A stretch of DNA of 64,000 nt from Ostreococcus lucimarinus. Its lineage: Eukaryota. A program made the translations under genes and the position numbers. A model generated the notes under the pieces. That model was not told where the DNA came from, made no database searches, and saw only the letters and a list, made by a program, of their open reading frames with translations. How positions within the stretch are numbered: the first letter of the stretch is position 1; the number at the start of each line of letters is the position of its first letter. The stretch is taken from the NCBI GenBank assembly GCA_000092065.1, contig CP000583.1, one strand, 5' to 3'. Below, piece after piece: positions 52,211 to 59,939 of this stretch.

Positions 52211-55200
52211 CTACAGTACGGACTCAAGAGACCGGTTGGGGGGCAGCAGATCAGCCATTTCGCTCTTCAAACGCTCGAGAGCGTCCGCGTACGAAATGTG
52301 CGCGTTCTCTGTCTTTTTGCTCAACAACCTCCGCCAGCGAGCAAACAATGCCTCCAACGTTCGGGCACTACGAACGTAAGGAAGCACGACTTCCCACACG
52401 TACCGCATATTTTCCGTGCCCAGCCAGGTTGTTCTGTCCACCTGGAACGCACCCGCGCCGCCGCCTTTTTCGGCGAGCGCGGCCAAGGCGAACGCGATGA
52501 CGGCGTCTTCGAGGTCCGACCACATAAGATCGCCGGACCGCGTCTCGCCGTGCTCGTCGATGAGTCGCTTCGCGTTCTCGAGGAGCGCCTTGGCCTGAGC
52601 GTCGAGCGTCGCTTTTTTGTCCCTCTCTTTGGGCTCGATGTCCTCGTACTTCGCCGTTTCGCTCTTCAAACGCTCGAGAGCGTCCGCGTACGAAATGGAA
52701 TTGTTCTCTGTCTTTTTGCTCAACACCTTCCGCCAGCGAGCACACAATGCCACCGGCATTCGGCCACTACGAACGTAAGGAAGCACGACTTCCCACACGT
52801 ACCGCATATTTTCCGTGCCCAGCCAGGTTGTTCTGTCCACCTGGAACGCACCCGCGCCGCCGCCTTTTTCGGCGAGCGCGGCCAAGGCGAACACGATGAC
52901 GGCGTCTTCGAGGTCCGACCACATAAGCTTGCCGGACCGCGTCTCGCCGTGCTCGTCGATGAGTCGCTTCGCGTTCTCGAGGAGCGCCTTGGCCTGAGCG
53001 TCGAGCGTCGCTTTTTTGTCCCTCTCTTTGGGCTCGATGTCCTCGTACTTCGCCGTTTCGCTCTTCAAACGCTCGAGAGCGTCCGCGTACGAAATGGAAT
53101 TGTTCTCTGTCTTTTTGCTCAACACCTTCCGCCAGCGAGCACACAATGCCTCCGACGTTCGGGCACTACGAACGTAAGGAAGCACGACTTCCCACACGTA
53201 CCGCATATTTTCCGTGCGCAGCGCGGTTGTTCTGTCCACCTGGAACGCACCCGCGCCGCCGCCTTTTTCGGCGAGCGCGGCCAAGGCGAACGCGATGGCG
53301 GCGTCTTCGAGGTCCGACCACATAAGATCGCCGGACCGCGTCTCGCCGTGCTCGTCGATGAGTCGCTTCGCGTTCTCGAGGAGCGCCTTGGCCTGAGCGT
53401 TTAGCGTCGCCTCCGTACTCGCCCCCACTTCAGGGCGGAGCACGTATTTTTCAGCAATGCTCGCGTACTTGGCGTCGTATGTGTCTCCGTTCGCCGCGGC
53501 GAGAAGAACGCCAAAAATCAGGCGACGCATGTTCAATTGTTTGCCCGCGCGTGCGTCGACATCGCTGTACGCAGCCGCGAAGTTCTCTTTCGAGAATTTT
53601 GCGACATCGACTTTTTTGTCCGTCGATTCCATGCGACTTCGCCAGAACGTTATGAACCATGTGATTGGGGCGGACAAGCCCCCTCGAAGCAACTCTCGTA
53701 ATTGTCGTGCATTGATTGCGTCACTCTCGCGGGCGGATGCGGTTTCCACGCGCGCTACCGAACGCGCTTCCTCGGGTGAAAGCGTACCCTCGGCGCTGTG
53801 AATCAAAACGAGTAGTGAACGCAGCGCCTGCGGATACCGAATCCAATGAGCGACGAGTCGTCCGCTCAAGGCGTCACCGTACTGTGATGTCTTCGTGTGC
53901 ATCTTCGTGATCCTATATAGCTCCATGTAGACCGCCTTACTTGGCAGAATTATTTCTGCGTCGCGAAACCAAATTTCCAGCGCCGCTTCGAGACGGTCGG
54001 GTTGGCTTCGGCAAGCTTCTCCCAGGAACGCCGTAAGGAATTCCTTGTTACCCAGCGAATCGATGAGAGCGCGCGCATGACCGCCGTTTGCGTCAAAACG
54101 GAGCAAGTCTCGAAATAACGAGAGGATTGCGCCGTCTTCAATGTCGCACGCCTTCTCGTCGCCGCCGAAGAAGCGCGCCGTGAGCGACCGCGAGGACGGC
54201 TGCGCGCCCGATCCATTTCCGTTCGAGACCGCCTCGGCGCCCGCCAAAAGATCGACAAAGGCACTCCAAAAGTTTTGCGTGAAGAAAACGAGCAGCCGAT
54301 TTACTAGGTCAGGCGAGACTGTCGAGTCGGCAAAGATCGTCTCGTGACGTGCGAGCACTATGCTGCTCATGGTGCGTACCGCAGTCGCGGCGCGGTCGGT
54401 GTCTTCTCCGTAACAGCGCAGCACCCACGGGTTTGTGGCGAAGCCGGCAGTGTCTGCCATGGAGACGACCGGCACCTTGCGGTGACCGGCGATGCGAATG
54501 CCCGGCGTCGCTCGGTTCAAGGCCCACGTCGAACCCAGCTCGATCCACGTTTTCAGAAAATAGGTCCAGACTATTTCAACAAACATTCCATCGAACGCGC
54601 CCAGAGCAGCGAGCGCGTGCATTCGTACGTATTTCGGCTTGTTCGACTTGTGCGTCGCGCGGTACTCGAGGACAAAGGCCACGAATGCGCTGAGCAGTCG
54701 TCCCATTCGACGTCTCGTCGGGTGAGTGATGGCGTGGAACCGGACGTTGGCGTCGACGATAGGTTCCCAGCACTTTGATGGATTGCCGCTCACCGTGAAG
54801 TCGACGTAACGGACGAGCGTGTTGTCTCTCGCTCGAATGTGCGCTTGCTGCGCGTTGTCGCCGTCACTAATGAGGTAGTTTCGATGCTCTCCCAAGCGTG
54901 TTGAAAACCAGCGCTCCGATTCGCCGACGTACGCGCCTTCATCGGACCGCACCAGCCACACGTACGCGTTGACCGGCTCAGCGTACAACCTCGCCTTCAG
55001 GTCGCCGCGCGAGTCGCGATGTTCTCGAGACTTCAACCAATTCGATAACGTTCGTAGGTGCTCCATGAGTTCTAGCGCCCCCGACTTGTCGTCACCCAGC
55101 GTCTCGCCGACGTCGTAAAATTGCTCCACAAAAAAAGCCGGGACGTGCGTCGTACTAAAGTACGTGTGGCGCCAGGTTGACGTGTCCGCTAGATGTCCCG

Positions 55201-58379: not shown

Positions 58380-59939
58380 ATGCCTCGCGCGCGTCGCGCG
58401 CCGTCGCGCGCCGAACCGGCGCGCGACGCGAGCGCGAACGGCGTCCCGCCGACGCGCACTGCGCTGTTTGCGCCCACCGTGGAGACCGGCGACCGCTTCC
58501 GCGTCGACGCGAGCGTGCGAACGCACACCGCTGAAGGCGGGCGAGCGTGGACCCCGTACTCGCCGGGGCGCGACGACGCGCCGTGCGTGGTCGGGTTCGG
58601 CGTCGTTCAAGCGGACTCTCGCATCGCATCCGAATACGACGAAGAATTGCGCAAAGCGCGCAAGTTGCGGCGAAAGCTCGGCCTAGAGCTCGTGATGGAT
58701 GTGCGCTACGCCCGAAATCGCGGGACGGTGCAGACGACCATGTCCGTGGAGACGTTCATCGATGGCGCGGGCGCCGCCGGGACGATCTTCGGGACTCGAA
58801 GTCAAAGATTCAGATTCGTCGAAAACGCGATTCGACGGCGATACCCGCGGCGCGCGCGCGCGCAAGACGACGACGACGGCCCTCCGTGCGACGCGGACGC
58901 CGCCGTCGCGTGGCTGCTCCGACAACCGCACGATTCGCGAGACAGTATCCTCGTCGAATTCGATCGCGATACCGTGCGCAAGCCTTCGTTTCCGTATCGC
59001 GTGGTGTACGAGAGCGAGTCCGGCGACGAAGGCGCGTTCGGATGCGCGCTCACGGAAGCTGAGTTCGCCGACTGGTTAGGCGGTTGGCGTCCGCCGCCGG
59101 CCGCGAATCTCGACGAATTCTTCGCGATCCTGCGGACGATGAACGTCGATTTGAGCGGCATCGATACCGTCAGGACGCGGTGGCTATGTTTTGAAATTGG
59201 CAGTGGATGGGCGAACGTGTCCCTGGCTTTAGCGGAAACGCTCGGCGACGACGTATTGTGCATCGCGATGGACCCGAAGGAAGGGCTGGAATCGACACGC
59301 GCGAAGAACCACCCGCGCGTGCTCATTCTTAACGAAGACGTGTGGGATGCCCAATTCTTCATGGACGTCAGAAGAGCCACCGCTGGGCGCGTGCTTCACG
59401 CGCACGCGTCGCCGCTGTGTAAGTATTACTCCACGGAGCAGCGCCCGAGGCGAAAAAATCTACGCGACCGCGGATTGCAGCACGTGATTGATGAAGAGCT
59501 GCTGCACGCAGACTCCATGGTGACTGTGGAAGTCGACACGTTACGACTGCTAAATCCGCTTAGCATCAGCGTGGAGAACCCGCACAACGACGCGGATGGC
59601 ATCGGCTCGCGATGCGATCTCTTGTCCGACGTGTACGCAATGCTCGACTTCCTCGTGAGGTGGAGCGTGAGCTACTGCCACTTCACAAAGGGCGAGATAC
59701 GGAAGCACACCGACCTGTACGTCACCCGCAATCTGTACGACGTCATGAAAGAGGCGAAATGGAAGGGCCTGTGCACGTCGAGGTCGCCGTGCGCGTACCG
59801 TCGCCGATCGGGGGCGAGGCAGCACAAGTCTGGCGTTCAAAACCAAAAGGGATCGGCGAAAAAAGGGAGAATCCCTTTAGCGCTCGCTCGCGACCTCGCC
59901 AAGCACGTCGGCGTTCTCAAGACGGGCGTCGCGCGTTGA
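58380..59939 (+). CDS. C5-cytosine DNA methyltransferase-like protein (class I SAM fold) with unknown ~270-aa N-terminal region
   Basis: ATG at 58380. Motif order matches C5-MTases:
- I: WLCFEIGSGWANVSLALA
- post-I acidic: DDVLCIAMDPKE
- IV-like: RVLHAHASPLCKYYS
- VI: PLSISVENPHND
- VIII-like: YCHFTKGEIRKHTDLYV
- X-like: KKGRIPLALARDLAKHVGVL
Motif IV is P-L-C rather than the canonical P-C. The assignment is tentative. Confidence 0.6.
   Translation: MPRARRAPSRAEPARDASANGVPPTRTALFAPTVETGDRFRVDASVRTHTAEGGRAWTPYSPGRDDAPCVVGFGVVQADSRIASEYDEELRKARKLRRKLGLELVMDVRYARNRGTVQTTMSVETFIDGAGAAGTIFGTRSQRFRFVENAIRRRYPRRARAQDDDDGPPCDADAAVAWLLRQPHDSRDSILVEFDRDTVRKPSFPYRVVYESESGDEGAFGCALTEAEFADWLGGWRPPPAANLDEFFAILRTMNVDLSGIDTVRTRWLCFEIGSGWANVSLALAETLGDDVLCIAMDPKEGLESTRAKNHPRVLILNEDVWDAQFFMDVRRATAGRVLHAHASPLCKYYSTEQRPRRKNLRDRGLQHVIDEELLHADSMVTVEVDTLRLLNPLSISVENPHNDADGIGSRCDLLSDVYAMLDFLVRWSVSYCHFTKGEIRKHTDLYVTRNLYDVMKEAKWKGLCTSRSPCAYRRRSGARQHKSGVQNQKGSAKKGRIPLALARDLAKHVGVLKTGVAR

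Follow-up and report, generated by a model that had tools for sequence, protein, structure and literature searches.

We analyzed a 64-kb stretch of DNA from Ostreococcus lucimarinus CCE9901 (termed the window), in which a pair of divergent genes, designated A and B, had been singled out from the sequence alone as a candidate nuclease-methylase module (termed the original prediction). The list of open reading frames (ORFs) bore out the coordinates and strands of both genes, which diverge from a shared interval (Table 1). Exact matches in protein collections identified A and B as annotated, single-copy genes of O. lucimarinus CCE9901, and the UniRef entry for A (A4RU04) carries the label "OTU domain-containing protein." With 60.0% G+C for A and 63.1% for B, against 62.6% for the window, the composition of both genes is ordinary. 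Within the window, we found neither a further copy of A or B nor long flanking repeats, and the A-B locus contains no integrase, reverse transcriptase, or terminal repeats. A comparison with Rfam over 50 to 62 kb returned nothing relevant, and the spacer between the two genes was without an Rfam match.

Table 1. Features of the A-B locus and of related sequences (positions refer to the window unless another sequence is named; aa, amino acids)
Feature	Position	Strand	Description
ORF A	52211..56821	-	1536 aa from ATG; identical to XP_001416876.1; UniRef A4RU04
Three tandem 133-aa modules of A	52214..53410	-	aa 1138-1536; weakly Myb/SANT-like
Orphan core of A	53411..55729	-	aa 365-1137 (776-aa core, aa 365-1140, in the profile search); no detectable relatives outside Ostreococcus
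GIY-YIG-like motif of A	54884..54964	-	aa 620-646, YVWLVRSDEGAYVGESERWFSTRLGEH; motif only, domain unsupported
Acidic Asp/Glu linker of A	55748..55858	-	aa 322-358; short tandem repeats at 55749-55850
Ser/Pro-rich linear segment of A	55859..56065	-	aa 253-321, DDEPQSPPILA...SPGGTVR...RRAK; near-invariant between A and P0003, no family match
OTU-like region of A	56252..56704	-	aa ~40-190; Cys box GGGDCQFHAI, His box MHYESI
Segment deleted in a natural haplotype	56103..56894		Removes the A start codon and the entire OTU region
Bisulfite-covered stretch	53371..57346	-	L023, SRR847306; 100% identical in C-to-T space
Divergent spacer	56822..58379		1558 bp, 72% G+C, CpG observed/expected 2.07
Conserved noncoding part of the spacer	57463..58162		Collinear 713-bp alignment, 71% identity, with L003 170-871
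ORF B	58380..59939	+	519 aa; identical to XP_001416586.1; UniRef A4RU05, uncharacterized
N-terminal region of B	58380..59144	+	aa 1-255; lineage specific, kept among orthologs, no family match
C5-cytosine-methyltransferase-like domain of B	59181..59915	+	aa 268-512
B-family genes flanking the A homolog of L001	L001 5875-7587; L001 14051-15532	-; +	

We analyzed the sequence of B and of its relatives. Among 5.8 billion proteins, the homologs of B were P0004 (99% identity), P0005 (60%), P0006 (48%), and the partly frameshifted P0007. A first route from B to methyltransferases was opened by a 570-aa paralog encoded in L001, which resembles the C-terminal half of B (24% identity over 250 aa; pairwise E value, 4e-11) and matches phrog_757, "DNA methyltransferase" (E value, 1.4e-7). 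We then assembled a B-family profile from the C-terminal domains of B, two of its orthologs, and the L001 paralog. In the 5.8-billion-sequence database, this profile reached two short proteins of ~215 aa, P0010 (E value, 4.2e-5) and P0012 (E value, 9.3e-4), both of which lie above the Pfam PF00145 cutoff of 22 bits (26.7 bits for P0010 and 35 bits for P0012). All four of the short relatives that we recovered belong to PHROG 757. When the paralog was excluded, hhalign still aligned the B orthologs with the short PF00145-positive methyltransferases over 202 columns (probability, 98.5%; E value, 3.8e-15). The gene for P0012 is located on an actinophage-like contig next to WhiB, RusA, and terminase genes, and the phage relatives of this protein are annotated as "Dcm-like" C5 methyltransferases.

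Evaluation of the alignments revealed conservation of the loop that binds S-adenosylmethionine (SAM) and of the two catalytic residues. Motif I of B (FEIGSGW, with E272-x-G274-S275-G276) is invariant in the orthologs and aligns with the FxGTGS of P0012, and D298, at the acidic end of strand 2, is also invariant in the orthologs. In motif IV (A-S-P-x-C347), Cys347 is invariant and is aligned to the Cys of ASPPC in the PF00145-positive relatives, the L001 paralog retaining the canonical SPPC. The E399-N400-P401 of motif VI is invariant in 8/8 aligned sequences. Across B and the short relatives, ASPxC, ENP, YC, and KxT do not vary, and B shares with the short phage enzymes an (R/M)KxTD sequence that replaces QxRxR, a short segment containing Cys, and, at the C terminus, a RIPxxLA helix, the RIP of which corresponds to residues 497 to 499 of B. 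The motif order typical of C5-cytosine methyltransferases, which the original prediction had recognized in B, is therefore confirmed at the profile level, both by the passage from the B-family profile to PF00145-positive proteins and by hhalign; likewise, the two catalytic residues singled out for checking, the Cys and the Glu of the ENV motif, do align (Cys347 and E399). These comparisons show, at the level of sequence, that the C-terminal ~245 residues of B are homologous across the whole domain to short phage "Dcm-like" C5-cytosine methyltransferases. On the basis of this homology and of the conserved catalytic residues, B is most likely a SAM-dependent DNA C5 methyltransferase, its activity being predicted rather than observed. 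The O. lucimarinus accessions given in the supplementary table of a DNMT survey (PMC10538959) do not include B, and a literature search for the accessions of A and B found no paper.

One further relative of B was found in another setting. P0009, a PHROG 757-type protein of 262 aa (L004 1457-2245), is encoded 22 bp downstream of an ORF (L004 2-1435) that contains Integrase_H2C2, rve, SH3_Tf2-1, and Chromo domains and corresponds to a Ty3/gypsy chromodomain integrase. L004 may represent a Ty3/gypsy chromovirus with a short C5 methyltransferase as cargo, of a type unlike that of the DNMT3-carrying elements described previously (PMC5890265).

The only homologs of A that we found were P0001 and P0002, which are lucimarinus-like, and P0003 (50% identity); a metagenome scan for A returned near-identical loci only. 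The N-terminal part of A contains a region in which Pfam PF02338 (OTU) matches both A (E value, 2.2e-3) and P0003 (E value, 1.7e-3) at identical profile positions. Two boxes, GGGDCQF(H/Y)AI and (M/R)HYES, are conserved between the two proteins, and we take them, from the family consensus and not from a tool-made alignment, to be the Cys and His boxes of OTU proteases. A PDB profile search with the OTU region returned nothing. We propose that the N terminus of A is a probable, not proven, OTU-type cysteine protease or deubiquitinase. Thus, of the N-terminal features first described for A, the acidic linker is present in the translation, and the OTU signature persists as a subthreshold match in both A and P0003 with which the UniRef name agrees. 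As for the orphan core, its profile was run exhaustively with HMMER against 1.84 billion representative proteins and yielded only P0003, lucimarinus-derived fragments, and P0075, a weak match (E value, 2.1e-4) made of 11 short stretches.

A GIY-YIG nuclease core had also been proposed in A. The pattern Y-x10-YVG-x10-R-x3-H (Y620, Y631-V-G, R642, and H646) is present in A, is conserved in P0003, and occurs in 0.15% of A shuffles; since it was defined after the sequence had been seen, it can serve only as a lead, not as evidence. Candidates for the Glu and Asn of the family, E719 and N727, were placed by eye only. Searches of Pfam with E values up to 10 gave no GIY-YIG match in A, in P0003, or in an isolated 195-aa segment, and searches of PHROGs with E values up to 1 gave none in A. 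We then compared A with a reference alignment composed of eight phage I-TevI-like enzymes and of UvrC, Cho, and YhbQ from E. coli. The probability assigned by hhalign was 0.1%, with the best stretch located away from the motif, and an unfiltered hmmsearch (--max) found no match at the motif. An AlphaFold2 model of aa 575 to 805, built from a shallow alignment, was unusable (mean pLDDT, 30.9). Other nuclease families were not found in A in Pfam, PHROGs, NCBIfam, or PADLOC, and the PDB yielded nothing significant with A as the query. A GIY-YIG nuclease is thus without support in A, as Pfam, PHROGs, hhalign, and hmmsearch gave no significant profile match.

The C terminus of A is made of three near-identical modules, as had been noticed, and TRF delineated a 399-nucleotide (nt) unit present in 2.9 copies with 96% identity (52254-53410). 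The proposed Myb/SANT nature of the modules holds less firmly. A comparison by hhalign with the repeats of c-Myb and B-Myb, the sequences of which were verified against the PDB, gave a score of 18.9 (P = 0.006), which is in about the top 0.5% of column shuffles (10.1 +/- 2.35; maximum, 19.9). In this alignment, W31, R84-T85, and R92-W93 match up, and there is an insertion of ~25 residues. Pfam Myb_Rap1 matched 1 of 6 repeats (E value, 0.008), and a PDB profile search with the repeats returned nothing. Among the three repeats of the window, dN/dS ranged from 3 to 4.8, and the differences were concentrated at positions 63 to 65, 83 to 87, 90, 95 to 96, and 104 to 105. Positions 83 to 96 are located on or just before the third helix in the Myb alignment, and this helix would be the recognition helix of the A repeats.

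The excess of amino acid changes was also apparent when the window was compared with L019 (JGI) and L020 (ENA), two metagenome contigs of independent origin. Counts over what are essentially the repeats gave 43 nonsynonymous codons and 1 synonymous codon against L019 (aa 1100 to 1400) and 21 and 0 against L020 (aa 1100 to 1300); comparison of nonorthologous repeats could inflate these counts, yet it would not explain the missing synonymous change. The number of repeats is 1, 2, or 3 in different assemblies, but short-read assemblers can collapse 399-bp repeats, and variation in copy number is therefore unproven. L019 and L020 also share an identical deletion junction, which defines a natural OTU-less haplotype (Table 1). 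In this haplotype, the A reading frame is open from the spacer, and none of the indels shifts the frame. Identity to the window is ~99.4% for B and the spacer but only 96.9 to 97.8% for the body of A, the latter with a dN/dS of 1.35 to 1.6. Two peculiarities of L020 were noted. After the first A repeat, the contig runs into a cytochrome P450 gene absent from the window (L020 6440-9012), and this junction is either a rearrangement or the mark of a chimeric contig. L020 also terminates at an AT-rich 30-bp tandem repeat (3.5 copies, 98% identity), which is located at 60157-60262 of the window, ~220 bp past the stop codon of B.

We examined the arrangement of the two genes across lineages. A and B are divergent in the window and in the OTU-less haplotype. 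L001 represents a second lineage, in which the A homolog is 50% identical and the B ortholog is 48% identical; there, the B paralog is found divergently upstream of the A homolog, across a 0.9-kb spacer, and the B ortholog lies 1.3 kb downstream of the A homolog, on the same strand. The flanking genes differ among the window, L001, L003, and L020, and A and a B-family gene still adjoin. The only gene common to the flanks is an inositol-phosphatase gene, which is found at varying distances (~30 kb from the A-B block in the window). The adjacency of A and B thus outlasts rearrangement in two lineages. The divergence of the pair between lineages is similar to that of a neighboring housekeeping gene. 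In the lineage of P0005, one contig (L003) terminates within the spacer. The linkage is conserved in the 50%-diverged lineage of L001 and, with no A homolog found for it, is not confirmed in that of P0005.

Part of the spacer is conserved as well. The L003 stretch to which it aligns is located upstream of the 60%-identical B homolog of the P0005 lineage, and the same element also aligns with L022 837-1999 at ~70% identity. Gaps are of 1 nt only, and a 3-base periodicity is absent. We conclude from the lack of codon periodicity and from the single-nucleotide indels that this block of ~700 bp is a conserved noncoding element, and the same two properties rule out a coding spacer.

Methylation at the locus could be read from an unexpected source. 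Three "proteins" retrieved by the exhaustive search, P0072, P0073, and P0074, looked C-to-T converted, being rich in V, I, F, L, Y, and C at sites that hold A, T, P, H, and R in the genuine protein. Such bisulfite pseudoproteins are a database artifact that can be exploited for reading methylation, and one of them led us to the Logan contig L023 from SRR847306, which belongs to published bisulfite data on O. lucimarinus CCE9901 (bioRxiv 10.1101/2025.04.21.649811). Over the 3976 bases covered, at one locus, on one strand, and in one culture condition, C was retained at 209/583 CG sites and at none of the 558 non-CG sites (0/166 CHG and 0/392 CHH). The methylated CGs are grouped in solid blocks, with unmethylated blocks in between, and the autocorrelation has maxima at 185 and 370 bp. 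This spacing matches the nucleosome repeat of 183 bp reported previously (bioRxiv 10.1101/2025.04.21.649811). All NCGN contexts were 26 to 55% methylated, which indicates that no sequence motif is involved, and in the two bins located wholly in the spacer (57000-57299), only 1/75 CGs was methylated. Dense CG methylation in nucleosome linkers has been described in Ostreococcus and its relatives, with DNMT5 proposed as the maintenance enzyme (PMC5082852), and Mamiellophyceae possess DNMT5 and lack DNMT1 and DNMT3 (PMC10538959, PMC5082852). The motif-specific protective methylation that a restriction-modification system would leave was thus not seen, and the CG-only, motif-free pattern argues against restriction-modification logic, at least for the locus, strand, and culture examined.

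With moderate confidence, we interpret A and B as a chromatin- or DNA-modification pair, the coupling of which is unproven, and not as a restriction-modification or toxin-antidote system; our confidence in the methyltransferase homology alone is higher than in this overall statement. We favor the view that the block consists of two long-resident, single-copy nuclear genes confined to a few Ostreococcus lineages. Residency, as opposed to recent insertion, is indicated by the ordinary G+C content, by the lack of a second copy or flanking repeats in the window, and by the lack of relatives on IMG/VR viral contigs. In the proposed pair, B would bind SAM and transfer methyl groups to C5 of cytosine in DNA through the covalent Cys mechanism usual for such enzymes, and its lineage-specific N-terminal part of 255 residues may direct it to its target. 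A would be a recognition-plus-deubiquitinase protein, the variable modules of which would bind DNA or chromatin. That adjacency outlasts local rearrangements suggests shared regulation or joint action of the two genes.

Several observations weigh against this interpretation. As regards B, the protein itself has no match in Pfam, PHROGs, NCBIfam, or PADLOC, so that PF00145 is reached at the profile level, via PF00145-positive proteins, and not by the direct match that had been sought. PDB sequence and profile searches with B and the B-family profile gave nothing significant, DNMT1 appearing only at an E value of ~0.26. The PF00145 matches of the short relatives span motifs I to VI only and stop at about position 116 of the 324 of the profile, and the residue preceding Cys347 is Leu (window and P0005) or Ser (P0006) where the canonical residue is Pro. 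An AlphaFold2 model of B, obtained from a shallow alignment, has a pLDDT of 42.8 with a Rossmann-like beta/alpha pattern at aa 268 to 398, and a Foldseek comparison of this model with the PDB was uninformative, returning only generic Rossmann folds, mostly dehydrogenases. We found no report in the literature of enzymatic activity for the closest relatives of B, and none of the methylation read at the locus can be assigned to B, since the pattern is that of the known linker CG methylation proposed to be maintained by DNMT5. As regards A, the PF02338 matches score 18.9 bits in A and 19.3 bits in P0003, under the gathering cutoff of 23.3, and the Myb assignment of the repeats is below significance thresholds. 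Outside the repeats, the comparison of A with L019 gave 27 nonsynonymous and 8 synonymous codons, which is about neutral; together with the OTU-less haplotype, this indicates that part of A may be dispensable or decaying. As regards the pair, no A start is present in the 1756 bp upstream of B in L022, from the P0005 lineage, an exhaustive protein search found no A homolog of this lineage, and the adjacency could be inherited synteny.

Inherited synteny is the core of the alternative that we regard as doubtful but still quite possible, namely, that A and B are functionally unrelated, lineage-specific genes that are neighbors through inherited order in a compact genome. All lineages bearing the pair are Ostreococcus-like and share a chromosomal neighborhood with the inositol-phosphatase gene nearby, the B gene of the P0005 lineage is accompanied neither by an A start in the 1.75 kb upstream nor by a detected A homolog, and A and B have no domain or known pathway in common. 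These points are countered by the varying flanks of the window, L001, L003, and L020, amid which A and a B-family gene are still next to each other, by the presence of B-family genes on both sides of the A homolog in L001, and by the conserved noncoding element of ~700 bp between A and B. We consider it improbable, in turn, that the block is an endogenized virus fragment or a set of domesticated transposon genes, captured from a prasinovirus, a phage, or a retrotransposon. Such a capture would fit with the phage orphan methyltransferases being the nearest relatives of B outside Ostreococcus, with the location of the P0009 gene, just 22 bp past the chromodomain-integrase ORF of Ty3/gypsy type, with the existence of retrotransposons carrying cytosine methyltransferases (PMC5890265), and with the patchy distribution and structural polymorphism of the locus. 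Yet the IMG/VR viral contigs contain no relative of A or B, integrase, reverse transcriptase, terminal repeats, and extra copies are all absent from the locus, its G+C and CpG contents match those of the host genome, and it has diverged between lineages much as a neighboring housekeeping gene has. The viral or transposon origin envisaged in the original prediction is thus not supported, and a transposon reading was rejected given the lack of a second copy and of flanking repeats in the window. An ancient horizontal origin of the catalytic domain of B is possible and is compatible with the chromatin- or DNA-modification pair that we favor.

The idea that first drew attention to the locus, in which a GIY-YIG nuclease in A cuts unmethylated DNA and B protects the same sites, as a defense or as a selfish element of the restriction-modification or toxin-antidote kind, now appears to be the least probable of all. 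It can draw on the GIY-YIG-like pattern, which is shared by A and P0003 and rare in shuffles, on the relationship of B to C5 methyltransferases of phage or bacterial type, on the adjacency kept through rearrangements, and on the fast-evolving, recognition-like repeats of A, which fit a conflict scenario. The nuclease, however, left no signal in any of the profile searches, unfiltered ones included, PADLOC recognized no defense system in A or B, and methylation followed CG sites at a spacing of ~185 bp without a preferred NCGN context. In addition, the genes are single copy, of ordinary composition, and devoid of mobility signatures. On present evidence, with the nuclease undetected and motif-specific methylation unseen, the locus is probably not a restriction-modification-like pair.

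Comparison with known systems helps to place the two proteins. B is like the phage "Dcm-like" orphan methyltransferases of PHROG 757, such as P0012, across a catalytic domain of ~210 residues, with which it shares the ExGSG loop, ASPxC, ENP, SYC, KxTD, the Cys...Cys segment, and the RIPxxL helix. Unlike these enzymes, B is encoded by a eukaryotic nuclear gene, has an extra, conserved N-terminal region of 255 residues and insertions after motifs IV and VI, carries Leu or Ser and not Pro before Cys347, and escapes detection by Pfam, PHROGs, and NCBIfam. DNMT5 and the "Chlorophyta DNMT6-like" enzymes of Mamiellophyceae belong to the same PF00145-type superfamily and occur in the same organism as B; unlike DNMT5, B is far shorter, lacks SNF2, RING, and other DNMT5 domains, and has phage enzymes as the nearest relatives found. 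The type II restriction-modification systems of the Eco29kI/Cfr42I class, which use GIY-YIG nucleases, resemble the locus in that a methyltransferase gene diverges from a gene with a GIY-YIG-like motif. A differs from them as a eukaryotic multidomain protein of 1536 aa with a nuclease domain undetectable by profiles, and motif-specific methylation was not seen.

The architecture of A has its own partial analogs. MYSM1 is a histone H2A deubiquitinase that combines Myb-like/SANT, SWIRM, and JAMM domains, and plant OTLD1 is an OTU histone deubiquitinase. By analogy of architecture only, the association in A of a deubiquitinase-type protease with Myb/SANT-like modules would suggest chromatin targeting. 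Unlike MYSM1, A has an OTU-like and not a JAMM protease, and its likeness to Myb is weak; unlike both MYSM1 and OTLD1, it combines a large orphan core with tandem, near-identical, diversifying repeats. These repeats may be compared, again as an analogy, with PRDM9-type tandem arrays, given their recently duplicated modules, their apparent number of 1 to 3 copies, and their clustered nonsynonymous excess. Unlike PRDM9, A has a different fold with no zinc fingers or SET domain, and DNA binding by its repeats is only putative.

Beyond the A-B pair, the class I methyltransferase fold recurs in both outer neighbors, located at 50314-51495 (minus strand) and 60735-61967 (plus strand). A spermidine-synthase-like protein (Pfam PF01564; E value, 7e-5, slightly under the cutoff) is encoded by one of them and a TPMT-like protein (PF05724; E value, 1e-25) by the other. 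That the pair has outer neighbors with this fold is probably a coincidence.

A bolder proposal, which we regard as unlikely, is that A and B form a eukaryotic module for sequence-directed DNA methylation or genome defense. In such a module, the diversifying Myb-like array of A would recognize changing targets, either prasinovirus or other invading DNA or sites in the genome; A would recruit or regulate the phage-derived B, and the OTU protease of A would remodel ubiquitinated chromatin. If this were true, B would become a candidate enzyme for cytosine methylation of the de novo or targeted type in Mamiellophyceae. In the sources consulted, the only enzymes given for this group are DNMT5 and the "Chlorophyta DNMT6-like" clade, with no de novo or targeted one named.

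Under the more restrained interpretation of A and B as a chromatin- or DNA-modification pair, what is new is a C5 methyltransferase homolog of phage type, divergent and extended at the N terminus, in a eukaryote, located beside an orphan partner and previously unrecognized as a methyltransferase relative. B is a case of a phage-type methyltransferase domain that has become fixed in the nuclear genome of a eukaryote, and it is a concrete candidate, open to testing, for a further or targeted activity in cytosine methylation in these algae, of a kind that Pfam-based surveys would miss. As for A, change almost confined to the amino acid level in recognition-like repeats is typical of genetic-conflict genes, and the Ostreococcus lineage is engaged in an arms race with large DNA viruses. 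As an orphan with structural polymorphism and with recognition-like repeats that change almost only in amino acids, A is a candidate for involvement in genetic conflict.

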